Source: a virus. Taken from it: a DNA stretch of 64,000 nucleotides. Both the position numbers and the translations under genes were made by a program. Numbering within the stretch: position 1 is the stretch's first letter; every line of letters begins with the position of its first letter. The stretch lies in the IMG/VR virus record IMGVR_UViG_3300042396_000723, positions 32,001 through 96,000 of that record, one strand, 5' to 3'. The notes below the pieces were generated by a model. The model was not told where the DNA came from and searched no databases. It saw only the letters and a list, made by a program, of their open reading frames with translations. Shown piece by piece: positions 1,885-56,124 of the stretch.

Positions 1885-1891
1885 GAGGTTA

Positions 1892-2659: not shown

Positions 2660-2695
2660 GTTTTCCTCTTATTTGCTAATGTTTGCAATTCAAAA

Positions 2696-3909: not shown

Positions 3910-3913
3910 TGCC

Positions 3914-4264: not shown

Positions 4265-4500
4265 TATTTAACATCCTCCAGTGATTCAATTGGGGTAATG
4301 GTTGAATCGGAATCGTCACCTTGACCGGGGGGAAGTTGACGATTATTTGTGGCATTTATAGACCCGCCGAACCAATAGGTTAAAGTCCCTACACTTTTCT
4401 CGAATAATGTCTTGATAGCGGTTTCAACTGTCATCCCTCTGACTCCAAAAAAGACAAGTAAAGTTAGCGCAGAAACGAAAACAATTCTTGAGGGTTTCAT
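4264..4500 (-). CDS. small secreted/membrane protein
   Basis: 78 aa with signal-peptide-like N-terminus. Confidence 0.3.
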   Translation of the reverse strand: MKPSRIVFVSALTLLVFFGVRGMTVETAIKTLFEKSVGTLTYWFGGSINATNNRQLPPGQGDDSDSTITPIESLEDVK

Positions 4501-4512
4501 AAGTAAAGGCTC

Positions 4513-6744: not shown

Positions 6745-7170
6745 TCAATCTCCCTGTGCATGGTGTGAGGTTTTGATTTTCTGGGCGTTGGTGTTTGGAG
6801 TGGTGTTTTCGGGCGAAAGTACCTTTCCATAGAGTTCAAGGGCTTCAAAGTATTCAGGACTCCCAGGCTGAAGGCAATTCAGGTGATTCTCGGTTGCCCT
6901 TTGGATCAGTTCACCCAACACAAGGTTAAAGTCTGGTTTTGTGTCTGATCTGTTGGGGCTTGTTTCCTTGTTTGATTGGGTGTTATTGCGGGTTGTGATA
7001 GCCAAGAGTGCAGTAGTTGTGGAACTAGCTATTAATCCGATAAAACCCCCGTATTGACCCATTCTAACCTCTGATATTTCCGGTTCTAATGTTAGGGATA
7101 ACAGGACTGAACTAAGACCACCAATCACAGTTCCAACCATGATCGCCTTAACGGGTTCTGGGATTTTCAT
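6745..7170 (-). CDS. membrane protein
   Basis: 141 aa; two hydrophobic segments. Confidence 0.4.
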   Translation of the reverse strand: MKIPEPVKAIMVGTVIGGLSSVLLSLTLEPEISEVRMGQYGGFIGLIASSTTTALLAITTRNNTQSNKETSPNRSDTKPDFNLVLGELIQRATENHLNCLQPGSPEYFEALELYGKVLSPENTTPNTNAQKIKTSHHAQGD

Positions 7171-7460
7171 ATTGATAGTTTTGGGATTGTTCCCTGATTC
7201 GACTAAAAACTACTTGATTGCTAAATATTAAAAACCCAATAAAGAATGCTGTTAAATAATAAATAGTATTCATTAGAAACAACCTCCCATTAAAAAGGGC
7301 ATTACGTTATGTGAGCAGTAAACTCCAAATAGATTAACCAAGTCGATAACGATTCCCACTTAAAACCCTCCCATTAATAATTCTAATTGTTGACTGATTT
7401 CCTTGGGTTGAGGGATTTTTAGGATAACTTCTATTCTCTCAACCCGTGTTTCTAGTTCGT

Positions 7461-7970
7461 TTATTCTCCGAAAAAACTTCTCACAGCTAACTGGGATTTT
7501 TTTGACTTTCCCACCGCTTCGTTAAGTTGCTGTTCTAAAGCCTCAATTGAGATTTCTTGATCAAAGTCTAAGAGGTTTCCTAACTCATCCCCGGACGCTT
7601 GATCAATTGCATTCTTGTACTCAGGAATCCCAACTAATAAAGCCTTGGCGGATTCAATTTCATCGTCTGCAATTTCATTTAAGAAAGCCAATTGTTTTGC
7701 TTTTTTAAATAGTTTAGCATCTTCCCGCCCGGAGTTTTGACCCGCAACAACAACGGCTTTAGTGTTAACAATCGCGTTATCCTTAGCTTTCTTTTGGGTC
7801 TTAACAACTGCATCATTGAGTTGATCTGTTGTACTCCCTTTGGTGATAGCTGATTTAGTCTGCTGTTTCGGCTGTTCCGCCTGGGTTTGGGGTTTCCGTG
7901 AGTTCTGATACAACTCGGTAAGTTCCGGTTGAGTGTTGTTGTCGGTAGCTTGTGATTCTTGATAGGACAT
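7461..7970 (-). CDS. hypothetical protein
   Basis: 169 aa; 5' end overlaps ORF 7855-8328 by 116 nt, so one of the two starts is doubtful. Confidence 0.3.
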   Translation of the reverse strand: MSYQESQATDNNTQPELTELYQNSRKPQTQAEQPKQQTKSAITKGSTTDQLNDAVVKTQKKAKDNAIVNTKAVVVAGQNSGREDAKLFKKAKQLAFLNEIADDEIESAKALLVGIPEYKNAIDQASGDELGNLLDFDQEISIEALEQQLNEAVGKSKKSQLAVRSFFGE

Positions 7971-8328
7971 CGACTTTAAACTCCTTAAATAGTTGGGTTG
8001 TGTTTAGCATTAACATCTTCTGGAAAACTTCTATCTCGATAGATAAACCGTTGTTTAAACAGTGGTGATAGAGGCTTTGGAACTGATAGTAGGTATGGTG
8101 TGGGTATTTGGAACTAACAAAAATATGCAATAGGTACAAGATGTTTAATTCCGCCCAATCAACAGGTTTTCTTGTTATCCCCAAAACCCCTTTTCTGTCT
8201 GCGATTGTCTGGTGGGAAACCTTGAAAATCAACTGAATCTCTTTTGAGGAAAATGGTTCTAAAGCGTTTTCGTCTCTAAGATCTATTGTTTTCCTAATTC
8301 CCCCTTGCCTCGATCTAAAATCGCCCAT
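7855..8328 (-). CDS. hypothetical protein
   Basis: 157 aa; overlaps previous ORF. Confidence 0.25.
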   Translation of the reverse strand: MGDFRSRQGGIRKTIDLRDENALEPFSSKEIQLIFKVSHQTIADRKGVLGITRKPVDWAELNILYLLHIFVSSKYPHHTYYQFQSLYHHCLNNGLSIEIEVFQKMLMLNTTQLFKEFKVDVLSRITSYRQQHSTGTYRVVSELTETPNPGGTAETAD

Positions 8329-8451
8329 TCATGGCTTCCTATAGTCCTCCGTTCTGGGTTTACTCAGGCTTGATTTAACCTGATGTACCAATAGTAAACC
8401 CACCTCTAAGGGTGGGCATAGGGGAAAATACATCTGGGGTGGAATTTGCCA

Positions 8452-8655
8452 CTACTGATTATTCTTTTCCTGCCATTCCATAACATAAAGCGTGTGTTTG
8501 CAAAATCGTTTCAATACATCTCGGTCAACCCATAAGTCCACAAAGGTATTATCTTGATTAATCGTTGCAATACAGTATTGACCATTAAGGTTTTGCCCTA
8601 ATTTTATTTCCCCTTTTAGGTGATGGACTTCTTGAGAGTGTGAATAATTGTCCAT
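8452..8655 (-). CDS. hypothetical protein
   Basis: 67 aa; start overlaps upstream stop. Confidence 0.3.
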   Translation of the reverse strand: MDNYSHSQEVHHLKGEIKLGQNLNGQYCIATINQDNTFVDLWVDRDVLKRFCKHTLYVMEWQEKNNQ

Positions 8656-8852
8656 TATATTTTTCCCTCTGATTGTGCTAACAAACCTAAGTGGCGACGA
8701 AATTGAACGTATTGGGGTTTAGGGTCGTAGCCTTTGCGACGGTGATTTTTTACCGTGTCAGGGTCGGCTCCTGTTAACAATGAAATTTGGTTGATGGATT
8801 TTCCGGTAAGTAAACGAAATTCATCTACAGATAGTTCTTTTTGTGCAAACAT
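8655..8852 (-). CDS. hypothetical small protein
   Basis: 65 aa; first gene after a divergent intergenic region. Confidence 0.3.
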   Translation of the reverse strand: MFAQKELSVDEFRLLTGKSINQISLLTGADPDTVKNHRRKGYDPKPQYVQFRRHLGLLAQSEGKI

Positions 8853-41997: not shown

Positions 41998-43986
41998 ATG
42001 ACCGCCCAATCATCCGAGACAACAAAAAAAGAAACCACCACAGAGATTGTGAATCGTTATAGAGAAGACTCTCGCGTCATGATGCAAGCGTTAGCGGAGA
42101 GTGCCGACGCAAGTTCGATGCGAAATCCTCTCCCTGTAACGGGAAGAATCCAGCCTTTCTCTCAACAGCAAGTAGAAAACTGTTTAGCAGACGCGATCTT
42201 AAAACGAATTGCATGGAGCCTTCCATCTTCGTCAACCCAAAAGATGTGGCAGTTATCCTTGGGGGATGACTTCTCTAGTAAGACGGGTTCTAAATTAGTC
42301 CGAGATTATTATGCCTATCACGAAAGATTGAAAACCATATCACAATTTAGAAAAGCATTGCAGTTCTCTCGCTCTCATGGTGGGACAGTTATTATTCTCA
42401 AGATTAACGATGGAAGACATTATTCCGAACCTGTTGATGAAGGCAAGATTAAATCAATCTCTGGGTTAATCGTTCGTCACCGATGGCAAGTTGCTCCTTC
42501 GGTGAGAACGGCTGCTAGTATATTTGACCTTGATGACATTGAACATTATGAAATCCTAACAATTGACCAACAAATAAAACAAAAATTACTATTTAACGGA
42601 ACAAATTCCAAGCAGGATGATCGCCTGATTCATCGGTCAAGAATCCTCCGGTTTAATGGGGCATTAATGCCTGATGATTGGATGATTTCCTATAACAATG
42701 GATGGGGATTGAGTGTCTTTGACGAGGTTTGGAAATATTATAAAAACTATACGAATGGACTCAATGCAGTAGGCGAATTAATTAAAACCCAATCAGTTCT
42801 ACAGCATTCTTTTGAAGGACTGCGGGAACTGATGATGGCATCTGATGAAGAAAGTATCGCAGCTATTAAGCAAACCATGAAATCAATCCGACTAATGTTT
42901 GATCTATATGGCATGGTTCTCCACGACTCCCGTGAACAATTCAACTGGAATGCCCGCCCCGTCGTCGGGATGGATTCACTCGTGCAAGTACAGAAGGATG
43001 GGGTAACAGGAGCCTCTGGGATGCCTCACACGATAGTTTGGGGAGAAAGCCCTGGGGGTTTGGGGCGTGATGGCAAGGAGACCCAAATCAACTATGCTAA
43101 CTCGGTGGCAGAGTACCAAGGAGAGAGCTTAGATCCTAGCGCAGCTATTCTTGATCGTTATATCTTCTTGGCTAAAGACGGCCCCACAAAAGGCAAAATC
43201 CCCGACAACTACCAGAGGCAGTACCCTTCTATCTTGAGGATGACCATCGAGGATCTCCGCTCTGGACGCTCATCTGATATTCAGGCATTGGCTTCAGGTA
43301 TTCAAGCCGGATTCATCACGACAGATGAAGCTCGGACAGTGCCTTCTAACTCCGGTTGGTGGCCAGAGCTTAATCTTGATCAAAAAGCATGGGAAGAAGC
43401 CAGGAAAAAAGCAGAAGAACAAGCAAACTCCCTTGGTGGTTTTGATATGGGAGCATTAGGAGGAGAGGAAGTTGCCCCACCCACTGAAGAACCCGTCGAA
43501 GAAGAATCTATAACTCAAATGGACAGTGCTGTTTACACCCCAATAAAGCGGGTTCTTAATTGGCACGGGCTATCAATTGGGGTCACTCACGATAAAGGGG
43601 ATCTTCGCTATAACAAAACGATGAAGGTAGGGTATGGGCATATTAGACGCAGCTATGGACACGCGGAGGACGCAAAAGCAATCGACGTTTATATCAAAAA
43701 TCCAAACTCACCTAGTCTCTGGAAGGTTCGGCAACTCAACACAACAACAGGGGAGATTGACGAAACAAAGTATTTCTTGGGTTTTGATTCCCCCAAAGAA
43801 GTGCGCGATTGCTATTACTATCATGCCGGATTAGATCGTTTTGGAGGAGTGGAGAAGTGCGATCCTACGGAATTAAACCAATATCGCCAAGATGCAGAAG
43901 AATTGGAGGGAGTTAATGAAGTTTATCAAAATAAGATATTAACAGATGTAGCAAATAGAATCAATCAACAAACTCAATTAGATTAA
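41998..43986 (+). CDS. portal protein candidate
   Basis: 662 aa; first gene of head block, divergent from terminase block; assignment by size and position. Confidence 0.45.
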   Translation: MTAQSSETTKKETTTEIVNRYREDSRVMMQALAESADASSMRNPLPVTGRIQPFSQQQVENCLADAILKRIAWSLPSSSTQKMWQLSLGDDFSSKTGSKLVRDYYAYHERLKTISQFRKALQFSRSHGGTVIILKINDGRHYSEPVDEGKIKSISGLIVRHRWQVAPSVRTAASIFDLDDIEHYEILTIDQQIKQKLLFNGTNSKQDDRLIHRSRILRFNGALMPDDWMISYNNGWGLSVFDEVWKYYKNYTNGLNAVGELIKTQSVLQHSFEGLRELMMASDEESIAAIKQTMKSIRLMFDLYGMVLHDSREQFNWNARPVVGMDSLVQVQKDGVTGASGMPHTIVWGESPGGLGRDGKETQINYANSVAEYQGESLDPSAAILDRYIFLAKDGPTKGKIPDNYQRQYPSILRMTIEDLRSGRSSDIQALASGIQAGFITTDEARTVPSNSGWWPELNLDQKAWEEARKKAEEQANSLGGFDMGALGGEEVAPPTEEPVEEESITQMDSAVYTPIKRVLNWHGLSIGVTHDKGDLRYNKTMKVGYGHIRRSYGHAEDAKAIDVYIKNPNSPSLWKVRQLNTTTGEIDETKYFLGFDSPKEVRDCYYYHAGLDRFGGVEKCDPTELNQYRQDAEELEGVNEVYQNKILTDVANRINQQTQLD

Positions 43987-44773: not shown

Positions 44774-45739
44774 ATGTATAAAAAGATGACACCAACAGAA
44801 ACTTCAGTAAAATTAGCGATTGCACAAGTCTTGTCAATGCCTTCTGTTTTTAACGCACCTCTTTACGTCTTGGATTTTAACATTGACGAAAAAGGGACGG
44901 TATCAGGAAGGTTTAGAGATGCTGCTAGACCCCGTGTATTTAGCTATGAGATTGCAGACGATGGAATAACCTTTAGTCCCTTTGTCCCTGGAAGAATGGA
45001 TAGCAGTGACTGGAAAGTAGAAGACTGGGAGAAGTTTTCAGATGGCTATTCGTTTAGGATTGACGCAGGGATGCAAAAACGAACCGACAAGCCAAAATGT
45101 AATCCGGCTGTTTCTTTTTCTTGTGGAAAGGCTTGTGTTAGTTTAAAAAAGAAATGCAAAACAGATCCTCAAGATCCGACTTCTGTAGCCAAGAAAGAAA
45201 AATTAAAAGCTGTTATTAAAGAGGTTACAGTTACCGACAAGACGAGCAAAATTAAAGTCAGTAAGGATAAATCTAGTAAGCCCAAAGCCAATAAATTGAT
45301 CAATGACCTAGAACCCTTAGAGCCATTAAACACCTCTCGGACACCCACTGAAACCGTGTTACCTGAGCTAAGTTCTAACAATGTTGTTAAGGGTCTTGGT
45401 GGTAAAGTGGGCAGAGGAAAATATTCAGGCGATGCGGGTAGGGATTTTGAAGATACTGGCAAGATGATGAACTACCCACTAAAAAGCGTTGTAGCCACAA
45501 AGGACATGAAAGGGAAGGAAAAAGAAGTGGCAGACGTAGCAAAAATGTTGAAAGAATCCGAGAGAAATTGGCTCCCTGTTTATGTCAAAGAAGTTAGACC
45601 TTACGAGTATGAAGTTGTCGGAAATCATTTGACCCATGCAGCAGCAATAAAAGCAGGGTTTGAGAGGATTTGGACTATTCCGGTTGATTCAGATCCGGCT
45701 ACTCTCAAACAGATTCAAATGTTAACAAACGGTAATTAA
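44774..45739 (+). CDS. polymorphic effector family member A (shared N-domain, Cys knuckle, ParB-like C-terminus)
   Basis: 321 aa; N-terminal VKLAIAQVLSMPSVFNAPLYVLDF...GRFRDAARPRVFSY; KPKCNPAVSFSCGKACVSLKKKCKTDP; C-terminal YEYEVVGNHLTHAAAIKAGFERIWTIPV resembles the ParB fold. Confidence 0.5.
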   Translation: MYKKMTPTETSVKLAIAQVLSMPSVFNAPLYVLDFNIDEKGTVSGRFRDAARPRVFSYEIADDGITFSPFVPGRMDSSDWKVEDWEKFSDGYSFRIDAGMQKRTDKPKCNPAVSFSCGKACVSLKKKCKTDPQDPTSVAKKEKLKAVIKEVTVTDKTSKIKVSKDKSSKPKANKLINDLEPLEPLNTSRTPTETVLPELSSNNVVKGLGGKVGRGKYSGDAGRDFEDTGKMMNYPLKSVVATKDMKGKEKEVADVAKMLKESERNWLPVYVKEVRPYEYEVVGNHLTHAAAIKAGFERIWTIPVDSDPATLKQIQMLTNGN

Positions 45740-45780
45740 TTCCTGTGTTTATTTTACAATCTTATAAATTAAGATTTGAT

Positions 45781-45858
45781 GCTCCGCCAACAGAAATCCA
45801 GGCGAAATTAGCGATCGCCAAAGTACATCTCAATATTGGTAGAAGTGAACTTAATTAA
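45781..45858 (+). pseudogene. remnant of family N-terminal domain
   Basis: Translates APPTEIQAKLAIAKV... then stop; resembles N-termini of family members (PTEAQMKLxIAQ) but no in-frame start. Confidence 0.3.
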
Positions 45859-46181: not shown

Positions 46182-49100
46182 ATGGTCACAACCTTAAACC
46201 GTCAAAATCCCCGTCGCCTTGATGCTGCTCCTACGGAAGTGCAGATGAAACTTGGTATTTCTCAAGTTTTGTCGATGCCATTTGCCTACAACTCTCCGGT
46301 TATCGTTCTGGATTTTGAAGTAGGCAATAAAAACATCATCAAGGGACGGTTTAAGGATGCCATTAGATCCCGTGTTTTTGAGTTTGAGATTGGGGATTCT
46401 ATCACGTTCAAGCCGTTCACCTGGAGGCGAACGGATAGCGACGTTGACCCGATGGCATGGGAAGACTTCTCTAAAGGGTATTGCTACCGATTCGATGCAG
46501 TCAAGACCGTCAGAAAGGAAAAACCTAAGTGTGGCAATACTTCTTATAACTGCGGTAAAGCCTGCATTGGCTTAAACAAGAATTGCAAATCAGATCCCCC
46601 CGATAAACCGTCCCAGGAGAAAGTTGATAAACTCAGAGCCGCGGCAGGGGAGTTTAAAGCTGTTCAGGGCGATCCAACCAAGAAGCAAGAGGATAATAAG
46701 TTAACGCCAAAACCACAGGAAGTTAAGGAAGTCGCGCCCACCCCCTCTCCCGATAAAGCAGAAGTCCCTGTCACCGACCTTGCTAAACAGCCACCTGTTG
46801 CCTTAAAAATTGGTAAAAAATCAGTCAACCTAAAAGACGACCTTGATTCCTACAAAGATTTAAGAATAACCGCCGATCCCGTTTTAGGTTGGCAAGTTAT
46901 CAATAAGAATGGGAACGTACTGAGAGAACCGCCCAAGGGCAACACGGCTCCAAGTCATAGATTCAAGAAAAGAGAGCAGGCTGAAAAGTTTGCTAACGAT
47001 GTGATGACACGGGTTGAGAAGTTGCAGAAGGCTCAACCAAAACCGGATGCTGATGTAAGTGACTCTGATAAAAGGTCATTTGAAAGTCTTTACACCACAA
47101 AATTATCATCCGCCCAACAGTTGCTTAACTTAGAAAAAAACGCAAAAATAGCGCGAATATCTCCCAGTGAAGATCAAAAAAATTATGACAAAAAACAACC
47201 CGACCTCAATATTGATTCGGGGCCAGGAATAATGGAAGGTTGGAGGACTGCGAAACCAGACGGATCTGTCCAGGGAATCCCTTGGTCTGTCAAGGCGGAG
47301 GGTCAAGAAAAGTCACGGGCTATCGTGGGTGCTAGATTAACGGATCATCCAGCCAGCCCTAATTTAAAAAGACTCAGGTTATACGACGCAGACGGACGTA
47401 ATGAGACAATTGACTTCAAAAAGGGTGATAGAAACGCATCTCTTAGGGCTAGAAGACTTGTTAGAGAAATCGCACAAGGAAAGTCTCAAGAGATGGAATC
47501 TGGCGACATAAAAGCGTTGATTGAGGGAGGTAAAGAGGGTTTAGCTAAAAGAAAAGTGGAAAAGGCAAGATTAGCTGCTGAAGACAAGCAATTTAAAGCA
47601 GCCTTAGATGATTATTTAAAATCAAAAAACCTAACAAGAGAAAGCATTAAAGGTTTGACCGATATCGGAATGGACGATCTTATCGAAAAAGTTGAGAAAT
47701 ACCAGAAATCACGATCTCAAACCCCCAATTCAGCAGGGGATAAGGGTGCGGGGGGTAAAACGTTTGACCTAAATGATTTATGGCGACAAACCGCCGACGC
47801 TGCTTATTCTAAAAACAAAGATGGTGTCTCAAAAAATCTTGAGCAATGGAAGGAAGTTGTAAAAAAATTAGAGTCAGGAGAAGGGATCTCTAAAGACGTT
47901 AACTTAAACGAATACGAAAAGTTAATGGATAATTTAGAAAAAAAATTAGTCCTCGATCCCAAAGATCCGTCTAATGTTGAATTTAAAAAGATTACGGGAT
48001 CTATTTCTAAGATTCTTAGTAAAGCAGGCAGTCTCAACCCGTTAACACAAGAAGACCTAGAAAAAGCTCACCCTAACTTTAGACCAATCATGCAACGAAT
48101 TAATAAAACCGTTGCTAAGGATTATGAATTATTTGACAAAAAAGAGCGAGTTCAAAAAGAGTTAAATAGCCTAAAACAAGAAAAATCTTATAACGAGGCT
48201 GTGATATTAAATAATTCAAAACGATTCCGAGAAATAGGTATTAATAATAACGAGGTAGAAATTCAAAGACTTTCCAAGAAAAAACCGAGCGATTCAGTTG
48301 AGGTTAGAAATCCTGTCTCAAATTTACCAGAAAGGACTATTTCGGCATCCAAACGGATTAAGGAACTTCAAGATGAAATTGGGGAATTGAATAATAGTGA
48401 AAAAGCTAAAATAGAAGAAGACAGGGCTAGAAAAGAAATAGCCCGATTGCAAAGCCCAATGAAGGATGCAGAGAGTAGAATAAACGCCATTTTAGACGAG
48501 AAGAAAAAATTAAGGGAATCTCGCGGCGGATCTAGTTCACAATCAGAACCCAAGCAAACCCCAAATTCAGTAGGGGTTGATGGTGCGGGGGGTAAATCAG
48601 TTGATCAACAATATAAGGATATAATTGCTAAGTCGAAAGATCCAAAGGGAACAGAGGAAGTTTTATCGTCAGCATTAAGAGGTGGGTTTGGTGACTTTGA
48701 AAGAAAAAATTATAACGAATATTCAACCGCTATAAAATCTGGGACTGTTCCAAAAGGAATGGGGAACTATTATCAAAAACAAGTCGACAAATATAAACCC
48801 ATTATTGAGGCGGAAGATTTTATTAACGAAAGGAAGAAAAAAGCAATTAGTGGAGACTATGAAACAGAACAAGAAGCTGGGGTTTATGTTCTTAATAAAT
48901 TAAAGCAAAAAGGCTACAAAGAACACGAATATTATGACAGTCCAGACTATGAAAAAGATTATGGAAAATTGGTGGGGGTAATGAAATCTGTTAAACTTCC
49001 TCCGCCGTTGTCTGGTATCGTCCCCGGTAAAGAATTAAAACAGACATTAACTCCGGGTGACAAACTACTTGTTAAAGAGGATACTTATTCGTTAATGAGT

Positions 49101-49466
49101 AGTGGAAATACCCCTACTGGCTATCGAATAGTTGATGGTGGCGAAGTTTTAAAGGTTAATGTCAAGAATGTTAAAACCCGCGTTAGAGGCGAATACATGG
49201 GGAAACCCTACGAGAACGAGCCGTCTCTCGCTCTTGATAAAGTTACCCACGTCATCCGAGATGGTAAACGTTACAAGGTAGATGATTCTGATAGATCCCC
49301 CAATGACTTAAAGTCGGAATCCTCCAAATCCCAGAAAGCAGTAAAACAAAAGGCAGTAAAACAGAAAGCAATAAAAGTTCAAGGGGAGCGATCGCAAAAA
49401 CAAGAATCCCCTCTAATTCCGAAAGAGGAAATAGTTAAAGATGCTCCAATACTGATGTTAAGGTAA
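46182..49466 (+). CDS. polymorphic effector family member B (long repeat-containing C-terminus)
   Basis: 1094 aa; shared N-domain and KPKCGNTSYNCGKACIGLNKNCKSDP; internal repeats NSAGDKGAGGKTFD / NSVGVDGAGGKSVD; lysine-rich. Confidence 0.5.
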   Translation: MVTTLNRQNPRRLDAAPTEVQMKLGISQVLSMPFAYNSPVIVLDFEVGNKNIIKGRFKDAIRSRVFEFEIGDSITFKPFTWRRTDSDVDPMAWEDFSKGYCYRFDAVKTVRKEKPKCGNTSYNCGKACIGLNKNCKSDPPDKPSQEKVDKLRAAAGEFKAVQGDPTKKQEDNKLTPKPQEVKEVAPTPSPDKAEVPVTDLAKQPPVALKIGKKSVNLKDDLDSYKDLRITADPVLGWQVINKNGNVLREPPKGNTAPSHRFKKREQAEKFANDVMTRVEKLQKAQPKPDADVSDSDKRSFESLYTTKLSSAQQLLNLEKNAKIARISPSEDQKNYDKKQPDLNIDSGPGIMEGWRTAKPDGSVQGIPWSVKAEGQEKSRAIVGARLTDHPASPNLKRLRLYDADGRNETIDFKKGDRNASLRARRLVREIAQGKSQEMESGDIKALIEGGKEGLAKRKVEKARLAAEDKQFKAALDDYLKSKNLTRESIKGLTDIGMDDLIEKVEKYQKSRSQTPNSAGDKGAGGKTFDLNDLWRQTADAAYSKNKDGVSKNLEQWKEVVKKLESGEGISKDVNLNEYEKLMDNLEKKLVLDPKDPSNVEFKKITGSISKILSKAGSLNPLTQEDLEKAHPNFRPIMQRINKTVAKDYELFDKKERVQKELNSLKQEKSYNEAVILNNSKRFREIGINNNEVEIQRLSKKKPSDSVEVRNPVSNLPERTISASKRIKELQDEIGELNNSEKAKIEEDRARKEIARLQSPMKDAESRINAILDEKKKLRESRGGSSSQSEPKQTPNSVGVDGAGGKSVDQQYKDIIAKSKDPKGTEEVLSSALRGGFGDFERKNYNEYSTAIKSGTVPKGMGNYYQKQVDKYKPIIEAEDFINERKKKAISGDYETEQEAGVYVLNKLKQKGYKEHEYYDSPDYEKDYGKLVGVMKSVKLPPPLSGIVPGKELKQTLTPGDKLLVKEDTYSLMSSGNTPTGYRIVDGGEVLKVNVKNVKTRVRGEYMGKPYENEPSLALDKVTHVIRDGKRYKVDDSDRSPNDLKSESSKSQKAVKQKAVKQKAIKVQGERSQKQESPLIPKEEIVKDAPILMLR

Positions 49467-49641
49467 CAGATAGAGATGGAATTATTCTTGTGGAAGCCGA
49501 AGAAGTATAGAAAATTAACAATAAATTAGTGGTTTTGCTTCTGTTTTGCCCAAAATAAAACTGTTATAATTAATAATAACAAACGCCTCTCGCGGTGCGC
49601 TAACACCCAGAGGCAGTAGATCCTATCCAAGAGGAACCACA

Positions 49642-50370
49642 ATGACTAATTTATCATTATTACCTGACGATATTCGTTCTGAATTTTCCGTTAACGATCA
49701 AGGTCAGGCTTTTGCGAGTAGACGGGCGATCGCACGGTTGGCAGGCGTTTCTCATGTGTCCATCGGGAATCTATTGGATAAAATCGCTGTTAACCTAGAC
49801 CTCCCCGAAAGCATTGAAATCCTTGGAGGGCAGGACTTTGAGGGTGTTAACCTGATCCCTGATACCGTTGCCTCCCGGATTATTGAGTATTACGCTTTTG
49901 ATGCTAAACGTTATTGCACAGAACAAGCCAAGCGAGTTTATAAAGCATTCGGGGCTATCGGGTTTCGGTCGTGGGTACAAACTGAATTAGGTTGGCAATA
50001 TTCACAACCTAAGTTACCTCAGACTTATGCTGAGGCATTACTGGAGGCGGGACGGTTAGCGTTAGAAGTGGAGAAGTTGGAAGCCGAGAAAACATTGCTT
50101 GAGCAAGAGAATGGCGAACTCTCCAAAAATTTAGATGAGTTATTTGATTATTCCTCTATTGTTCGGATTGCCAAGTTTAACCAAATCTCAGAGAAAATCT
50201 TTAACTGGCGGTTACTCAAGGCATTGAGTCTTAAAATGGGGTTAGAAATTAAAAAAGTCCCGTGTCCCAGGTTTGAGACAAAAAGCCTATATTCTCACGA
50301 TGTCTGGCGTGTTGCTTATCCTGAAATGAAGCTACCAGAAACGACAACGCTAGTTATTAACAGAGGATAA
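49642..50370 (+). CDS. antirepressor-like protein with KilAC-like C-terminal domain
   Basis: 242 aa; C-terminus QTYAEALLEAGRLALEVEKLEAEK...YSHDVWRVAYP paralogous to 26760-27449. Confidence 0.55.
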   Translation: MTNLSLLPDDIRSEFSVNDQGQAFASRRAIARLAGVSHVSIGNLLDKIAVNLDLPESIEILGGQDFEGVNLIPDTVASRIIEYYAFDAKRYCTEQAKRVYKAFGAIGFRSWVQTELGWQYSQPKLPQTYAEALLEAGRLALEVEKLEAEKTLLEQENGELSKNLDELFDYSSIVRIAKFNQISEKIFNWRLLKALSLKMGLEIKKVPCPRFETKSLYSHDVWRVAYPEMKLPETTTLVINRG

Positions 50371-50446
50371 CCAAAACAGTAGGAGGGATGCGTTAAAACA
50401 TCCTTTCTCTGTACTAAGATCGGGGTATATCCTACTTTTTAACCCC

Positions 50447-50866
50447 ATGCTATCCCTAAGATTTAACGCCAATCAAGTCCGAAATTATCTAAATAAATTA
50501 ATTAAAAAGTTTCAGAATCTTAACCCCGAACTGCATAAAGTTGGGCAGTTTATGGTGGCATCAACCGATGAGAACTTCCAAAAGGAACAGAGTCCTTATG
50601 GGGAGAAATGGGAACACTTAGCACCATCAACCCTCAAATACAAGGCAAGTCGGGGTTTTATTATGCAAATATTACAACGCCAAGGATTGTTGCGATCTTC
50701 TATTCGGTATCGGATTGAAAAAGGAAGGGTTGAGGTAGGGAGTCCATTGCCCTATGCCTCCTATTTACAAGAAGGCACTAAGAAAATGCCTAAACGTCAA
50801 TTTTTAGGAGTAAGTCAACGCGATCGCAGGGAGATTATCGCTATTCTAAAGGATTCTCTTCGTTGA
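50447..50866 (+). CDS. phage virion morphogenesis protein (Mu gpG-like, putative)
   Basis: 139 aa; motif pattern and position in head module. Confidence 0.45.
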   Translation: MLSLRFNANQVRNYLNKLIKKFQNLNPELHKVGQFMVASTDENFQKEQSPYGEKWEHLAPSTLKYKASRGFIMQILQRQGLLRSSIRYRIEKGRVEVGSPLPYASYLQEGTKKMPKRQFLGVSQRDRREIIAILKDSLR

Positions 50867-51215
50867 TCTCGACGAGTTTATCAATAAGACCTGGGTTGAT
50901 TTCTTGAGGGATTTCTTGCTCAATAATCTTTAAAGTTTCCTTAGTCCAAGCAAGGATCAATCGTTCTGCCTCCGATTGATCCTCAGAAATTAACGAAGCG
51001 ATAATCAATAGTTCTACGAAATCCGTCCGTCGCTCCCCCATTAAAATCCGTCGAATTGTCTGCCAATCCCATCCACTTTTTTCACTAAATTCCATCATCC
51101 CAAAATTTGCATTTATAAGATCCCGTCGAATTGACCGACCAAGAGCGCGATAGGGAGCCAACGCACCAGATCCTAGTGTCTTCTTAGAAGGATACTCTCT
51201 TTTGATAGTAGTCAT
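50841..51215 (-). CDS. hypothetical protein
   Basis: 124 aa; lone minus-strand ORF in head block. Confidence 0.3.
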   Translation of the reverse strand: MTTIKREYPSKKTLGSGALAPYRALGRSIRRDLINANFGMMEFSEKSGWDWQTIRRILMGERRTDFVELLIIASLISEDQSEAERLILAWTKETLKIIEQEIPQEINPGLIDKLVEINEENPLE

Positions 51216-51249
51216 TATTTATATCTAAATCATTGGTTTAATTTTAGTC

Positions 51250-51274
51250 GATTTTCTTATATAGAAATTATTTT
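51250..51274 (+). promoter_or_regulatory. conserved 25-mer (late promoter candidate), copy 2
   Basis: GATTTTCTTATATAGAAATTATTTT identical to 44233-44257; 71 nt upstream of ATG 51345. Confidence 0.4.
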
Positions 51275-51344
51275 TTTACACCATCTTTAAATGACTGATA
51301 AGGTGCGTTATTCTTTAACAAGAATTATTTTTTTGTATTGAGAA

Positions 51345-52859
51345 ATGGTTGAAATCAGGCTTGATGCTCCAGCTAAATTTAGGGTAATCAGAACTGATGA
51401 TGGTCGCCTCCATTGTGAGGGGTCTTTTTGTCGTGATGGGGTGTTGGAATATCGTCAGCCTGATGGCTCCATAGTCCACGAACTCAGGAGACCGGAAACC
51501 AATGCAGAACTAGCCACAGTGGAGAGTTTTAAGCTCCTCCCCCTGGTAATTGAACATCCCCATGTTGGGCTTCTTAATAGCGAAAGTTATAAGGATTACG
51601 CAGTCGGGATGACTGATTCTTCTGCTTATTACAACAAGGCTGAAGGGGTGATCGAAGGCTTGGTGTCGTTTTTTGATGCTAAAGCGATCGCCCTAATTGA
51701 TTCAAGGGAAAAGGAACAGTTGTCTGCGGGATATACCTGCGATATCAAACAAGGGGCAGGGGTATGGAATGGTCAACACTACGACAGAGAACAGATTAAT
51801 GTTCGTGCTAACCATTTGGCTTTAACGAGCCGAGGAAGGGCAGGAGAAGATGCCCGTCTCCGATTAGATAGTGCTGCGGGGATTGGGCAAGCTGTTGCAG
51901 GGCAAGCTGTTGAAAACCCTAGTAACCCCAACAAAACCAAAGATAATGGAGATAATGAACAGCGCATGGCAATAATTAGATGCGATGGAGTCGAATATTC
52001 AGGAATCCCTGAAGTTTTCGCTTCTATTAGTGGTACTCGATTCCGTGAATTAAAAGAATTAAAGGAACGCCACGATTCGCTTGTTACACGGTTTGACGCT
52101 ACGATTCGGGAGAATCGGAAGCTAGAAGCCGCACAAGAGAACTACCAGTTTCGGTTGGATAACCTGGAAATCATTGTGGACAATGCTGACAATGTCCTTG
52201 GTGAATTAGGTTATTACCGGAACGACATGGGGCAATACGTCCGTGTTGATGGGGGCAAAAAGAAAATGATGTCTCTTGTTCCCGAAGATGAAGAAATGAT
52301 GGAAGATGAGGACAATGAAGATGAAGAAATGATGGAAGATGAGGTTATGGAAGAAAAAGAAACCATGACTTCCAGAAAGAAAAAAAAGTCCAAACCTCGT
52401 GCTGATGGCGACGATGAAGGCGAGAGTGATTACCGGGGTGATTCAATCGGGGATCTGTTGGCGATTTGGAAGGAAGCCGACAGTTTGTTACCAGGGTTCT
52501 CTGACACTCGGTTTGATAGTGGCTTCTCCACTAGCGATATCAAGCGCACTTTGTTGGCTGAAATCGAACCCAATATGGATTTGACGTTCCGATCCGATTC
52601 TTATGTAGACGGGGTTTTTGCCTACATTCAGGAGAATTATGATTCCTCCCCCACCGATCCAGGTGACGAAGAAGAAGGGGATGACGAGGAGGAAGACGAT
52701 GGAGACTCGGAGGAGTTTTCCCATCGCCTTGATTCGGTACTCAAAAGACCTGCTCAATCTACCTACGGAGATGAACTCACCGAATGGGAAAGACGACGGG
52801 TAGATGCCTATAAGCAGCCTTTAACGATAGGAAAAACACGCACGGGGTTTACTAGATAA
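51345..52859 (+). CDS. head morphogenesis protein (protease/scaffold-like)
   Basis: 504 aa; acidic C-terminal region with 33-bp tandem repeat (EDEEMMEDE x2); position before capsid candidates. Confidence 0.4.
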   Translation: MVEIRLDAPAKFRVIRTDDGRLHCEGSFCRDGVLEYRQPDGSIVHELRRPETNAELATVESFKLLPLVIEHPHVGLLNSESYKDYAVGMTDSSAYYNKAEGVIEGLVSFFDAKAIALIDSREKEQLSAGYTCDIKQGAGVWNGQHYDREQINVRANHLALTSRGRAGEDARLRLDSAAGIGQAVAGQAVENPSNPNKTKDNGDNEQRMAIIRCDGVEYSGIPEVFASISGTRFRELKELKERHDSLVTRFDATIRENRKLEAAQENYQFRLDNLEIIVDNADNVLGELGYYRNDMGQYVRVDGGKKKMMSLVPEDEEMMEDEDNEDEEMMEDEVMEEKETMTSRKKKKSKPRADGDDEGESDYRGDSIGDLLAIWKEADSLLPGFSDTRFDSGFSTSDIKRTLLAEIEPNMDLTFRSDSYVDGVFAYIQENYDSSPTDPGDEEEGDDEEEDDGDSEEFSHRLDSVLKRPAQSTYGDELTEWERRRVDAYKQPLTIGKTRTGFTR

Positions 52860-53689
52860 TGCGGTACAATTACAATCTTCAATTTGATCGGGCGACTCCT
52901 GGCATGGGCGAGGGATCTATTAATTTTCCGAGGGTCAAAGCCCTTGTTTCTGTCAAGAATGCTGTTAAAGAGGTCTGGACTCTGGCGGTTCCTGCCTCCC
53001 CCACTTCTAGCACTACATATACCGTCAAATTAAACAACGGACTAGGTACGGCACGTTTTACAACCGACGCTAGTGCCACTCAAGCGGAACTGCAAGCTGG
53101 TTTATTGAATGCAATCCGAATAAACCCTGCTTTTGGGCGACGAGGGATTGCTGCTGTTAGTGGGAATAATGTGTTGTTTACAGCACTGGAATATGGTATC
53201 GAAAATATCCTAACAGTTACTGGTGCTAGTTTAACAGCAACTAAAACTACGGCGATGACCATACCTCTTCCTGTCCCCTTCGGTCGGTTTGTCGCCAGAG
53301 CAAACACTGAAACCGATCCCAAAGTTGCAGGGCTTCCTACTGCTATTACTGACGTAATCCTGGGCATTACTCGAATCGTCAAAGATATCGAAATGCAGCC
53401 TTTGATAAATCAAGGTGCAAGCTATGGTGGAACGACTTACCCATATCAAGATGTGATGGACGTGGTTGACCGGACAGGAGAATCGTCAGGGATCTGGGTT
53501 GAATGTGTCGAGACGGATATCACAATTAATGATGCCGTCTATGTCTCTATTGCTGCGGGACACGAGGGGAAAGCAACAAAGGTGACAAGTGGCACGATTA
53601 ATATCTCCACGAAGGCTGAGTTCAAGTGTTCCCCCGTAGTCACTAGCACTGGTGCGGTGTGCGTTTTGATCGGCTTCAATGTTCCCTAA
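52859..53689 (+). CDS. head structural protein (decoration or capsid-related, putative)
   Basis: 276 aa between scaffold-like and capsid candidate. Confidence 0.35.
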   Translation: MRYNYNLQFDRATPGMGEGSINFPRVKALVSVKNAVKEVWTLAVPASPTSSTTYTVKLNNGLGTARFTTDASATQAELQAGLLNAIRINPAFGRRGIAAVSGNNVLFTALEYGIENILTVTGASLTATKTTAMTIPLPVPFGRFVARANTETDPKVAGLPTAITDVILGITRIVKDIEMQPLINQGASYGGTTYPYQDVMDVVDRTGESSGIWVECVETDITINDAVYVSIAAGHEGKATKVTSGTINISTKAEFKCSPVVTSTGAVCVLIGFNVP

Positions 53690-53714
53690 TTTGTATAGAA
53701 AGAATTTATAAACT

Positions 53715-54668
53715 ATGATGAACTTTTCTGGGACTACAAGGTTAGATGCTGATGAAATCGGCACGTTCTTTGGCTCTCTGATGGATTTAGAGGCTCAGAT
53801 AGATAAGGAATTTGACCTTGCGGACTATCCTTTCGCTGCTGGAGTCATTTGCCCTCTGAATATCCAAAACAAGCCCTGGGCAAAAACCTGGGGGTATCGG
53901 TGGCTCCGCCACGTTGGGCAGTTCAAGTTAATCCGAAACTACACCACAGACCTTCCCGAAGTGGAACTGGTCTATGGCGAGATGAAGATGCCGATTCATA
54001 AATGGGGACAAGGCTATAGCGTCTCTGAGGATGATATCGCGGCTGTTAGTCGGATGGGCGAGAGTATTGAAGAAGACAAAATCTGGACAATTCAAGAAGC
54101 CGCACAACAAAAAATCAATCAGTTGGTGGCAAACGGGGATTTAGAAACAGGAATGCCCGGTTTCTTGAATCATCCCCAAGCACTGCGGTCTTATGCTCCC
54201 TTCCCTTTGAACGGGTCAGCAACATCACAGCAAAAACTGAGTGTATTGAATGATTGTGTTAATGCTCCGACTCGGCTGACCAATAACCGAGAGAAGCCGG
54301 ACACATTGTTGATGGATTCGGAAACTTACGAACACCTCTCCTCGGATATTATTCAAATCGGCACATCCGCATTGGATCGTACGGTGTTAGAGCATTTCTT
54401 AAAAGTCAACCCTAATATCAAAGAAGTCGGCGTTGTGTCCGAGATGGCTCCTGACTATTTAGAGTCGATTGGTTTAGCTCCCACCCGCTTTATTCAGGCT
54501 TTCCGTCGAGATCCCAAAAAAGTCTCTGCTAAGATTTATCAACCGTTAAAGTGGACTGATACTCGCCCCATTGGTGTTGATTCTTTCTGGCGTGGTGCCA
54601 AGTTTAAGTTTGGGGGAATTGATCTCAAACGCCCATTCTCCATGCACGTTGTAGTATTACCTGAATAA
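53715..54668 (+). CDS. major capsid protein candidate
   Basis: 317 aa; position after scaffold and before connectors; preceded by a TATAGAAA motif. Confidence 0.45.
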   Translation: MMNFSGTTRLDADEIGTFFGSLMDLEAQIDKEFDLADYPFAAGVICPLNIQNKPWAKTWGYRWLRHVGQFKLIRNYTTDLPEVELVYGEMKMPIHKWGQGYSVSEDDIAAVSRMGESIEEDKIWTIQEAAQQKINQLVANGDLETGMPGFLNHPQALRSYAPFPLNGSATSQQKLSVLNDCVNAPTRLTNNREKPDTLLMDSETYEHLSSDIIQIGTSALDRTVLEHFLKVNPNIKEVGVVSEMAPDYLESIGLAPTRFIQAFRRDPKKVSAKIYQPLKWTDTRPIGVDSFWRGAKFKFGGIDLKRPFSMHVVVLPE

Positions 54669-54670
54669 AA

Positions 54671-55150
54671 ATGTCTAAAACTATCATCTTTGACCCCAAA
54701 CTAAATCCTCACAATCCACGCATTCCCTATGGAATATCAGTGGAGGCTATCACTTCGCCGATTCGTTTTTCCCGTCCCATTAATCGTGGGGGAACCAAGA
54801 AAACTTCCTTAGATGCGGTAGAAACACGGGGGAGTTGGATTCTTCCTGGGACTAATTTAGAACTTCCCGACGAGGACTATGAGTATATTACTCGGCATCC
54901 TCTCGGATTACAACTTATTAATTGCGGAGCATTCAGAATCATCTCTCCCACACTAGAGGAAGGGAAGTTTCCCACTGAAACAACCCTTGATTATATTGAA
55001 AAAGATGCCCTCGATCTGATTCGCAATTCTAGCGATATTGATTGGTTAGAACGATCCGAGAAAAGAGAAGGTCGTCCCGCTATTTCTAGGGCAATAGCAG
55101 AGCAAATCAAGAATATCAAGTCAGTCAATACTATGAACATCCGGGGGTAG
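54671..55150 (+). CDS. head-tail connector / head completion protein (putative)
   Basis: 159 aa; position. Confidence 0.35.
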   Translation: MSKTIIFDPKLNPHNPRIPYGISVEAITSPIRFSRPINRGGTKKTSLDAVETRGSWILPGTNLELPDEDYEYITRHPLGLQLINCGAFRIISPTLEEGKFPTETTLDYIEKDALDLIRNSSDIDWLERSEKREGRPAISRAIAEQIKNIKSVNTMNIRG

Positions 55151-55153
55151 TAA

Positions 55154-55489
55154 ATGGTTCTCCCTTCCGAATTTTTAGCGGTTTATCCTCAGTTCGCTGT
55201 GGTCGAATCTTCTGTGATTCAATACAGTTTAAACTTTGCCGAGAATAATTACTGCGCTGGTTGGGCAGATCCCAAGAGAACGGATGGAATTATGTTGATT
55301 GCTGCCCATCGAATCAGCGTTGATTGGTTCCAACAGGCGGATATTGCCTCTAGTGTTACGGGAATCGCATCGGGGTCAGGGAGTTCCACCCCTTCTGGCT
55401 CCGAGAATGATTGGTCTTTAACGACTTACGGGAGGCAATATATCCACCTCCGCAATACTATCTTCACTCCCCCTATTTTGGTCTTATGA
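55154..55489 (+). CDS. head-tail connector protein (putative)
   Basis: 111 aa; position. Confidence 0.35.
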   Translation: MVLPSEFLAVYPQFAVVESSVIQYSLNFAENNYCAGWADPKRTDGIMLIAAHRISVDWFQQADIASSVTGIASGSGSSTPSGSENDWSLTTYGRQYIHLRNTIFTPPILVL

Positions 55490-55671
55490 AAGTACAGTTC
55501 CCTGATTTCTCAGTTGATAATGGTCGAGTTACTTCTGCCGGGATGGTAACTCCTGCTTCCCCAGAATTGCAAGCTATGGCAGCGATTTATGTGGTGTTAC
55601 AAGAAATTAACGAGAAGTTAGACAAATCAGACCACGCCCCGGTTTCTCATACTCCTAAAGAGAAGAAATGA
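55486..55671 (+). CDS. hypothetical small protein
   Basis: Start moved to ATG 55486 (MKVQF), overlapping upstream stop (ATGA); track start 55411. Confidence 0.3.
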   Translation: MKVQFPDFSVDNGRVTSAGMVTPASPELQAMAAIYVVLQEINEKLDKSDHAPVSHTPKEKK

Positions 55672-56087
55672 GTCAATCTTTCGTTGAGCAAATGATAGCC
55701 CTAAGAGACCGAATCTCTCCCCTTGCGGGGGGATTTGGCAATCCCAACATTCAAAACCTCGTCGTTCGCACAAGAGTGGGCGATGGGTACGAATATTTGG
55801 AGATTTCCCCAACTCCGGTTATCCAAAAACAATTCCCAAACAAGGAGGGGATTGAAAACCTAAGCTCAGTGGAGGGGATAACTAGATCCTATTCAGTTAA
55901 AGGGATTTCACGGCGTTATTTAGAGGTGCAATTGAAAGGGGAGGGGGTTGACTATCTAGTCGGAGCCGATACTACTTATTACCCTCCTGATGGCGTTGTT
56001 TGTAACTTAGTCTCACTAACAGAAAATGTTGTGACGTGGGACATGGAGTTAGTTGAGAAGATTAGCTCACAAGGTTTTTATTTGTGA
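55668..56087 (+). CDS. hypothetical protein (connector region)
   Basis: 139 aa; start overlaps upstream stop. Confidence 0.35.
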   Translation: MSQSFVEQMIALRDRISPLAGGFGNPNIQNLVVRTRVGDGYEYLEISPTPVIQKQFPNKEGIENLSSVEGITRSYSVKGISRRYLEVQLKGEGVDYLVGADTTYYPPDGVVCNLVSLTENVVTWDMELVEKISSQGFYL

Positions 56088-56124
56088 TTAACTCACAAGG
56101 TTTCTATTTATAAAAGGTAAAATC

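Follow-up and report, generated by a model that had tools for sequence, protein, structure and literature searches.

The N-terminal domains of ParB proteins are known self-association surfaces. In the ParB CTPases, three motifs, QPR, GERRxRA and ENLQR (P-motifs 1, 2 and 3, respectively), touch the triphosphate and Mg2+ (PMC8367383), and motif variation in ParB-fold proteins can shift nucleotide specificity rather than abolish binding (bioRxiv 10.1101/2025.10.10.680097).

Phages and injected polyvalent proteins are already known to contain ParB/sulfiredoxin (Srx) domains, and the assignment of this fold is, by itself, an ordinary result. The polyvalent proteins carry 2-15 effector domains per polypeptide, commonly with an MPTase domain (Iyer et al. 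2017, PMC5512222). A conserved active-site arginine defines the DdrB-like family of ParB domains, which also bears an additional helix with a Tyr, and fusions to MuF and portal proteins are a published marker of packaged effectors (PMC5512222). Here, we compare with these systems a phage gene, designated family member A, for which an initial annotation had proposed a ParB/Srx-like module at the C-terminus.

Results

Organization of the gene

The source phage, closely related to Planktothrix phage PaV-LD, has a genome of approximately 95 kb, and the stretch of DNA that was analyzed (the window) comprises 64 kb of it. The ORF of family member A lies on the plus strand at 44774..45739, stop codon included (45737-45739), and encodes 321 amino acids in three parts. 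These are an N-terminal module (N-module) of ~150 aa (44774..45223, plus strand), a lysine-rich, low-complexity basic linker (aa 151-224; 45224..45445, plus strand) and a ParB/Srx-like C-terminal module (C-module; aa 225-321; 45446..45736, plus strand). The sequence WLPVYVKEVRPYEYEVVGNHLTHAAAIKAGFERIWTIPVD was found exactly, and in frame, within this ORF. One orthologue of the protein, P0001, is 98% identical, and another, P0002, is syntenic, lies beside the portal gene and is 58-61% identical. Relative to this syntenic orthologue, the C-module has a dN/dS of 0.27 and the N-module one of 0.16, indicating that the ORF is under purifying selection. The linker is fast-evolving, with 34% identity to the orthologue and saturated dS. 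The pI was 9.8 for aa 101-180 of the protein and approximately 8, near neutral, for the C-module, such that direct DNA binding by this module is not obviously favored.

Two minus-strand ORFs that overlap the C-module (45479-45637 and 45387-45542) were rejected, because openness was their sole support. Promoter and terminator scans around the gene gave nothing above shuffled expectation, and an Rfam scan of the whole window returned zero RNA families.

Fold and homology of the C-module

The AlphaFold2 model of the C-module (pLDDT 95.2, pTM 0.86) contains four strands (8-11, 45-51, 54-59 and 74-80, in module numbering) and three helices (25-38, 61-70 and 84-94), and its elements place the beginning of the folded domain at approximately residue 225-232 of the protein, window positions 45446-45467. 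The best Foldseek match of the model in the PDB was the ParB-CTPgammaS structure 7bm8 (E 4e-6, TMq 0.78, probability 1.00). A TMq of 0.78 was also obtained to Myxococcus xanthus (M. xanthus) ParB, 7bnk, and 0.62-0.66 to Srx, and the further top matches were Noc, KorB, PadC, sulfiredoxin, SerK and SbnI. In a BFVD structure search, nearly all of the named matches were viral ParB/Srx proteins. The model indicates that aa ~225-321 form a genuine ParB/Srx fold module, which bears out the fold that the initial annotation had proposed. The span that it gave for the module, 45566-45739, starts at the first base of the N265 codon, in the RNW loop (described below), and covers no more than the latter half of the module, through to its end, whereas its suggestion of residues ~230-321 fits the domain start that we observed. 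As separate observations, the BFVD matches of the module included a tail protein of Anabaena phage A-4L, and a weak profile match in the PDB was to a cyanophage 'tail protein' (9k3a_B, E 0.13).

Relatives of the C-module came from an exhaustive HMMER search; the 97-aa module by itself, used as the query of a word-index protein search, gave no match. With the same 97 residues, phmmer detected P0006 (E 1e-17), P0013 (3e-14) and P0033 (2e-11), the E-values being scaled to 1.84 billion proteins (Z = 1.8e9), and this similarity is therefore far beyond chance. P0033 and P0006 score 29.8 and 48.5 bits, respectively, with Pfam ParB_N (PF02195; gathering cut-off, 26.3 bits), and ParB_N was present in 94 of the 128 profile hits. 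The sole Pfam match of P0002 was also ParB_N, at 16 bits (E 0.012), which is below the cut-off. When a clade profile, built from the 40 domains that the query detects unaided, was compared with the PDB, the top seven matches were the N-domains of ParB, Spo0J and Noc, all in register, with E-values of 1.3e-3 to 7e-3. The profile similarity expected from the initial annotation was thus found for the clade and for P0006 and P0033, but the query itself remained under the Pfam thresholds.

This last result is the starting point for the view that the ParB resemblance is a chance pattern match in a region with another fold. Nothing in Pfam, ParB_N included, matched the query protein above threshold, its PHROG ParB-like match was at E 0.098, and phmmer of the module directly against PDB sequences returned spurious LRR matches only; searches of NCBIfam and PADLOC with the query also gave no match. 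Nevertheless, a chance match is refuted by the transitive and profile homology and by a model of pLDDT 95 whose best structural neighbors are all ParB/Srx proteins, and we consider it extremely improbable.

The module belongs to a distinct cyanophage/cyanobacterial clade that lies under Pfam's score threshold and has the signature G-R-N-W-x-P-V ... Y-E-V-V-G-N ... A-A-K-x-A-G ... R-x-W. Automated annotation labels the members of this clade 'hypothetical' or 'Rho termination factor', and two tandem copies of the module are present in many relatives. Identity between the phage module and the cellular clade domains is only ~37%, so the module was not captured recently from a host.

Nucleotide-pocket motifs

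In an HMM alignment to 7bnk, G283-N284-H285-L286-T287 (45620..45634, plus strand) stands in place of A-G-E-R-R (P-motif 2) of ParB, with N284 corresponding to Gly, H285 to Glu, and L286 and T287 to the two Arg of GERR. The initial annotation had GERR replaced by GNHLTH; its reading that the arginine is gone agrees with this alignment, and indeed extends to all three phosphate motifs, but its G-to-G register was one residue off. Across clade 1, the columns at this site hold N (93%), followed by H/S/A/G, F/H/L and I/V/A, and an R or K at one or other GERR Arg position is seen in only 5 of 75 clade 1 domains and is missing from the other 70. The QPR region varies and contains gaps across the clade, and the 321-aa protein terminates at M-L-T-N-G-N, where ENLQR would fall. 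As judged by alignment, QPR, GERR and ENLQR have all been lost in the clade of the phage module.

The clade signature R264-N265-W266-L267-P268 (45563..45577, plus strand) lies in the loop from helix 1 to strand 2 and corresponds, with a one-residue insertion, to the cytosine-contacting 'G-V-L-Q-P' loop of ParB, the position of this C-motif being taken from PMC8367383. In this loop, N is conserved in >90% of the sequences and P is invariant (alignment A4), while the clade 1 columns show R at 61%, K at 16% and W at 65%. Both an HTH and a C-terminal dimerization domain are absent from the phage protein, in which only the N-module and the low-complexity linker lie upstream of the C-module. Residues 225-321 contain no cysteine, so the F-x-G-C-H-R motif of sulfiredoxin is absent. 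We rejected a canonical ParB CTPase clamp because of the missing motifs and the architecture. Because the phosphate motifs are lost and there is no HTH or dimerization domain, the C-module is most likely a binding module, rather than a CTPase clamp or an Arg-dependent DNase.

The conserved polar residues R264, N265 and N284 sit in loops that line the nucleotide pocket of ParB, and may form a relocated-arginine active site. The module could then still be an enzyme, either NTP-binding/hydrolyzing or an NTP-regulated DNase, in which R264/N265 and N284 replace the GERR arginines. Such an enzyme would draw on the most conserved polar positions of the clade, namely the R/K, the N and the helix N-cap Asn (93%) in the two nucleotide-pocket loops of ParB, although both GERR Arg positions are hydrophobic across the clade (F/L, I/V) and the catalytic Glu position is without conservation. 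ParB-fold proteins in which box I/II/III are changed bind ATP/GTP, not CTP (bioRxiv 10.1101/2025.10.10.680097), but in the present clade the three phosphate motifs are missing together, and the phage protein stops before the ENLQR/Mg2+ helix motif. Similarly, while NTP-regulated DNase roles have been predicted for virion ParB domains (Iyer et al., PMC5512222), and P0006 shows a weak match to the ParB-fold serine kinase SerK (E 1.5e-4), the clade is without a conserved acidic metal-binding pair. We regard retention of enzymatic activity as unlikely.

The N-module and its genomic context

Within the window, tblastn identified at least 5 full and 3 partial paralogues of the N-module, at 46182, 56125, 57651, 62134 and other positions. 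The N-module matches PHROG 16619, 'minor head protein' (E 1.5e-27), and its role is presumed to be head association or packaging; Foldseek with the N-module model (pLDDT 67) gave no match at E <= 1e-3. The paralogue alignment revealed a four-cysteine motif, C109-x7-C117-G-x2-C121-x6-C128 (KPKCNPAVSFSCGKACVSLKKKCK; 45098..45157, plus strand), of which C109, C117, G118, C121 and C128 are invariant columns (alignment A6). The same motif occurs upstream of ParB-like domains in the portal-/MuF-fused relatives P0026 and P0042. Other N-module paralogues end in ADP-ribosyltransferase (ART) or HExxH modules, in P0003 and P0004 this N-module is joined to a ParB_N domain of another clade or to ART, and the C-terminal module is swapped as a cassette among the relatives P0002, P0003 and P0004. 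The ParB-like module is the variable, exchangeable 'cargo' end of a four-cysteine N-module protein family.

Within the structural cluster, the gene lies two genes after the portal gene, and the terminase large subunit is encoded upstream. An InPase domain is present on the portal protein in the window, and the fusion partners seen among relatives are a lambda-type portal, MuF together with a kinase, and ART. This context fits the view that family member A would be a virion-delivered effector. The injected, polyvalent setting suggested in the initial annotation is plausible in light of the ART/HExxH paralogues, the portal InPase and the portal/MuF/ART fusions, but the protein falls outside the DdrB-like clade. 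Membership in that clade was rejected, as neither the query nor its relatives matched PF18763, with which the positive control, P1 DdrB, scores 134.8 bits, and as the clade profile, aligned to P1 DdrB with hhalign, gave a probability of 0.14.

The same location near the portal gene and the PHROG 'minor head protein' match would also be expected if the protein were purely structural, that is, an internal head, scaffold-like or DNA-organizing protein whose ParB-like end self-associates or packs on DNA, with no host role. The basic, lysine-rich linker and the known self-association of ParB N-domains are in keeping with such a role, and the tandem copies in many relatives could make an intramolecular pseudo-dimer. 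However, the gene body is missing from the PaV-LD reference genome, a natural deletion of the segment 44792-45765, the flanks of which are otherwise 92-97% identical, and the gene is therefore dispensable for virion assembly. Exchange of the module as a cassette, and the fact that the same N-module can end in typical host-directed effectors (ART and HExxH), also argue against a purely structural protein, and we consider this role quite unlikely.

Cellular relatives and ParA

The loci of cellular relatives were searched with a single protein, P0044. In 44 of 44 cyanobacterial loci, a gene encoding HSDR_N_2 and AAA_31/ParA ends at, or overlaps, the start of the clade-1 gene. The adjacency of ParA and clade-1 genes was also seen in Synechococcus and Phormidium, and with a helicase-ParA fusion. 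The cellular clade members bear separate nucleic-acid-binding modules, Rho_N, HHH and SAP. No gene for a ParA-like protein (deviant Walker-A) was found in the 64-kb window of the ~95-kb phage genome.

PADLOC gave a weak match of the cellular ParA partners to the candidate PDC-M28B, centered on the Walker-A/ParA region, and the helicase-ParA fusion strongly matched a Mokosh-type helicase. These matches are insufficient to call the ParA/ParB-like pair a defense system. A limited literature search found no specific description of the cyanobacterial pair.

Discussion

We think it probable that the C-module is a motif-stripped, non-catalytic ParB N-domain, carried as the cargo of the N-module and delivered by the virion, which engages a ParA-family ATPase or self-associates. 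In the mechanism that we propose, the N-module would carry the protein into the capsid, and the 321-aa protein would enter the host along with the DNA. In the host, the ParB-like module may then engage a ParA-family ATPase, or may self-associate in the manner of ParB N-domains. In this way it would mimic the N-domain of the conserved ParB-like protein of cyanobacteria, whose translation is coupled to that of the HSDR_N-ParA ATPase.

A more specific version of this mechanism is that the module would be a packaged, catalytically stripped mimic of this N-domain, injected to hijack or jam a cyanobacterial HSDR_N(PD-(D/E)xK-like)-ParA or helicase-ParA machine, which could be a DNA-positioning or a defense system. 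We offer this version as a speculative and rather doubtful one. If true, it would provide the first ParB-mimic effector, together with a new ParA/ParB-like pair in cyanobacteria.

What is new at this locus is, first, a coherent clade below the Pfam threshold in which the ParB fold is kept and every nucleotide-contacting motif is lost; retention of the fold without these motifs makes the clade a natural test case for the function of ParB N-domains without CTP. Second, single effector modules (ParB-like, ADP-ribosyltransferase and HExxH) are swapped on a shared four-cysteine N-module, and are not concatenated in the polyvalent manner. Third, across cyanobacteria, members of the cellular branch invariably accompany an unusual ParA ATPase that is nuclease-like or fused to a helicase, and this ParA-linked pair is a concrete, testable candidate for the target of the phage module.

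Comparison with known systems

The phage module has the fold and topology of the ParB N-domain (PF02195; ParB, Noc, KorB, PadC; TMq 0.73-0.78) and, as with ParB, the genes of the cellular members of its clade directly follow that of a ParA-family ATPase. In contrast to ParB, it is without the QPR, GERR and ENLQR motifs, the HTH and the dimerization domain, has its own RNW and G-N signature, is fused to a head-cluster N-module and scores below the PF02195 gathering threshold. Sulfiredoxin and the ATP-using SerK and SbnI have in common with it a ParB/Srx fold of single-domain size (structural matches, E 4e-4 to 3e-3). However, these matches are weaker than those to the ParB CTPases, and the phage module has neither the F-x-G-C-H-R motif nor the conserved phosphate-binding arginine.

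A second arginine-less ParB_N clade, with the pattern 'G-[HD]-L-E-[YF]-x-A-A' (P0003, P0011, P0014, P0026 and P0042), is likewise without the GERR arginines. It occupies the same C-terminal place on the same N-module (P0003 versus P0002), occurs as tandem copies in portal-, MuF- and kinase-fused phage proteins, and is found together with the clade of the query in one protein (in P0008 and in the L062 ORF 3584-5035). Unlike the query, members of this second clade pass Pfam ParB_N (30-59 bits); they have G-G-L-L-x-P instead of RNW and are without the G-N cap, and existing annotations already name the cellular ones as ParB N-terminal domain proteins or ParB-like nucleases.

The DdrB-like ParB domain (PF18763) of phage P1 DdrB and the phage module both belong to the ParB/Srx superfamily, and both are part of proteins whose genes lie among late or structural genes and for which packaging and injection are presumed, whereas the conserved active-site arginine of the DdrB-like family is missing from the phage module. 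As with polyvalent proteins, the gene family or neighborhood of the phage module includes ART, MPTase-like and InPase modules (PMC5512222). In contrast to those proteins, family member A carries one recognizable effector-type domain, and the ART and HExxH modules reside on separate paralogues.

Gene and genomic setting

The window comes from a close relative of the Planktothrix phage PaV-LD: when a 7.5-kb stretch of it was compared with that phage, 76% of the stretch aligned at 96.5% nucleotide identity. The initial annotation had proposed a ParB/Srx-like C-terminal module at 45566-45739, and the peptide it quoted was found exactly in an ORF of 321 aa (44774..45739, + strand), located in the structural cluster two genes downstream of the portal gene; codon N265 begins at 45566, and the stop codon is 45737-45739. 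Proteins 98% (P0001) and 58-61% (P0002) identical to this query occupy the same syntenic slot in Planktothrix-associated metagenome contigs. In comparison with the P0002 gene, dN/dS was 0.16 for the N-terminal module (N-module, the first ~150 aa) and 0.27 for the C-terminal module (aa ~225-321), and the linker between them was saturated. By these measures, the ORF is a real coding sequence under selection.

Sequence and structural evidence for a ParB-like fold

The query matched a PHROG 'ParB-like partition protein' only marginally (E 0.098). Its orthologue P0002 had ParB_N as its sole Pfam match (E 0.012), and P0003, a protein with a near-identical N-module and a different C-terminal end, exceeded the ParB_N gathering score with that end (30.1 vs 26.3 bits). 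When 1.84 billion representative proteins were searched exhaustively by HMMER with a small C-module profile, 282 scored E <= 1e-3, and Pfam ParB_N was present in 94 of the 128 matches scanned. To exclude pull from P0003, the profile matches were re-scored with the query module alone at full library size, which found P0006 (1e-17), P0008 (1.5e-16), P0013 (3e-14), P0033 (2e-11) and others. Pfam recognized the proposed module in relatives, with P0006 (48.5 bits) and P0033 (29.8 bits) passing ParB_N, but a scan of the query itself gave no ParB_N match. When an alignment of 40 domains, all found by the query module alone (A4), was compared with PDB sequences, the top seven matches were N-domains of ParB, Spo0J or Noc, in register (E 1.3e-3 to 7e-3).

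The AlphaFold2 model built on A4 (pLDDT 95.2, pTM 0.86) has the element order strand-helix-strand-strand-helix-strand-helix. Foldseek matched it in the PDB exclusively to the ParB/Srx superfamily, with Caulobacter ParB-CTPgammaS as the best match (7bm8, E 4e-6, TMq 0.78), followed in order by Noc, M. xanthus ParB, KorB, sulfiredoxin, PadC, SerK and SbnI, and nearly all named matches in BFVD were viral ParB/Srx proteins. The proposed fold is therefore upheld by both profile and structural similarity, and we consider the fold and family statements very probably correct.

A clear structural match was also observed to the 'tail protein' of Anabaena phage A-4L (BFVD A0A059PY24_2, E 7e-5, TMq 0.73), and a weak sequence match to a large cyanophage 'tail protein' (PDB 9k3a_B, E 0.13). 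Solved cyanophage virion proteins may also carry ParB-like domains.

Nucleotide motifs and clade signature

The GERR replacement claimed initially was borne out by the HMM register against M. xanthus ParB, in which G283-N284-H285-L286-T287 is the counterpart of A-G-E-R-R and L286-T287 stand at the Arg positions. Across the query's clade of cyanophage and cyanobacterial domains, a conserved Asn replaces Gly at the helix 2 N-cap, the catalytic Glu position is variable (H/S/A/G), and hydrophobic residues occupy both Arg positions (F/H/L and I/V/A), with R or K at either one in only 5 of 75 domains. The region of QPR (P-motif 1) is a variable, gapped stretch, and the query stops at M-L-T-N-G-N, the expected place of ENLQR (P-motif 3; motif definitions from Jalal et al. 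2021, PMC8367383). It has neither an HTH nor a C-terminal dimerisation domain. The clade carries G-R-N-W-x-P-V, a one-residue insertion in the cytosine-contacting loop of ParB, with Pro invariant and Asn more than 90% conserved; its further signatures are Y-E-V-V-G-N, A-A-K-x-A-G and R-x-W.

The main rival to a non-catalytic module is an active site rebuilt from R264, N265 and N284. Recent work shows that motif variation in the ParB fold can alter nucleotide specificity (bioRxiv 10.1101/2025.10.10.680097), which counts in favour of this rival; overall, we regard it as unlikely.

The N-module and its exchangeable ends

The N-module (44774-45223) contains an invariant four-cysteine motif (C109, C117, C121, C128), suggestive of a small, putative zinc knuckle, and matches PHROG 16619 'minor head protein' (E 1.5e-27). 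Its AlphaFold2 model (pLDDT 67) consists of one helix, a meander of four strands and a hairpin rich in Cys, for which Foldseek returned no PDB neighbour at E <= 1e-3. The window contains at least five full and three partial N-module paralogues. Members of this family (46182-63880, all + strand) share the whole N-module or just its Cys motif, and comprise a 1094-aa protein with no Pfam match (46182-49466), one with two repeats of an unassigned domain (56125-57549), one with two ADP-ribosyltransferase repeats (57651-59516; Pfam ART, 25.2 bits), three with HE[MLS]xHWLE metallopeptidase-like ends (59598-60716, 60713-61852 and 62134-63585), and a further member at 63707-63880.

That cassettes are exchanged at the linker is seen directly in P0002, P0003 and P0004, in which the same N-module (near-identical in the first two, clearly homologous in P0004) precedes, respectively, an RNW-type ParB-like module, a ParB_N domain of the G-D-L-E-Y-H clade and an ADP-ribosyltransferase. 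On an unrelated 110-kb IMG/VR contig (IMGVR_UViG_3300018984_000003, regions 138-5035 and 7267-8557), three adjacent N-module proteins lie by the terminase. One ends in a RadC/JAB-like domain (HNHPRG motif, by eye), one in HExxH, and one in a hetero-tandem that joins both arginine-less ParB clades. Elsewhere the contig encodes a ParB-like nuclease of the conventional kind (GNGR motif), and the ORF after it resembles a cytosine methyltransferase.

Fusions of arginine-less ParB-like domains, which are often in tandem, also occur with a portal of the lambda family (P0026), with MuF and a protein kinase (P0042), and with ART (P0017). MuF or portal fusion is a published hallmark of capsid-packaged, injected effectors, and the portal protein of the window (41998-43986, +; Phage_portal_3, E 2e-44) has a C-terminal InPase (PF18823, E 5e-26), a fusion of the type noted for packaged effectors (PMC5512222). 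From these fusions, the portal InPase and the paralogue ends, it is reasonable to infer that the query protein is delivered with the virion.

A natural deletion in PaV-LD

The gene body (44792-45765, 974 bp) is replaced by 18 bp (8794-8811) in the reference genome of PaV-LD, which keeps the first 18 nt of the gene and both flanks (92-97% identical). The module-bearing gene is evidently dispensable. A purely structural role for the query protein, in keeping with its place in the structural cluster, is weakened by this replacement and by the effector-type paralogues, and seems to us quite improbable. Just downstream of the gene, at 45787-45825, another N-module is left as a dead 5' fragment (PPTEIQAKLAIAK), which has 10-11-nt exact repeats in common with the gene start, and the site resembles a hot spot for recombination between copies of the N-module.

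Cellular relatives and ParA pairing

The query's clade also supplies the N-terminal domain of a cyanobacterial protein that is widely conserved (606 relatives of one such protein, P0044, at E <= 1e-5). It occurs in Microcoleus, Tychonema, Nostoc, Scytonema, Anabaena, Phormidium and Synechococcus and is annotated mostly as 'hypothetical' or 'Rho termination factor'. The C-terminal halves carry Rho_N, HHH or SAP-type nucleic-acid-binding modules. At every one of the 44 genome loci whose upstream sequence was long enough, a 455-aa gene lies directly upstream on the same strand, its end meeting or overlapping the start of the clade gene, usually by 4-8 nt (for example, at locus L004, 5637-7004 then 7001-7801). 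This gene encodes an N-terminal HSDR_N_2 domain (PD-(D/E)xK-like) joined to a ParA/MinD-type ATPase (AAA_31, E 1e-31 to 7e-34). The pairing extends to thermophilic Synechococcus and Phormidium, and to one variant with a fusion of ParA to a Mokosh-like SF1 helicase, which has an SNF2 helicase and AbiEii as neighbours. Because a ParA-type gene adjoins the clade gene in all these loci, the clade is predicted to provide the 'ParB' partner in a ParA/ParB-like pair. A limited literature search found no description of such a cyanobacterial pair, and no ParA-like Walker-A protein is encoded within the 64-kb window.

Proposed function and comparison with known ParB-like families

Our analysis shows a ParB fold stripped of its nucleotide motifs and carried by a head-cluster scaffold with exchangeable ends; relatives of this module in cells are partnered with ParA ATPases. 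The query protein would be packaged and enter the cell together with the DNA; its ParB-like end might then bind a ParA-type ATPase, by mimicry or hijack, or bind itself or other ParB-fold proteins, acting without CTP hydrolysis or DNA cutting. We offer this delivered, non-catalytic, ParA-engaging model tentatively, as one possibility, while the overall explanation, taken together, appears reasonably likely.

Since ParB/Srx domains in phages and injected proteins are already established, the core claim, though correct as an annotation, brings no surprise. The novelty lies in the motif-stripped clade invisible to Pfam, the architecture with one scaffold and many cargoes, and the strict ParA linkage of the clade's cellular branch. 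The link to polyvalent proteins drawn initially is plausible for ParB/Srx domains in general but does not extend to their DdrB type, whose defining feature is a conserved active-site arginine (PMC5512222): P1 DdrB scores 134.8 bits on PF18763, whereas neither the query nor its relatives match that model, and hhalign of A4 against DdrB gave a probability of 0.14, which rules out this family for the module. A second arginine-less clade, G-[HD]-L-E-[YF]-x-A-A, passes Pfam, unlike the query, and has architectures in common with the query's clade, one protein sometimes carrying both.
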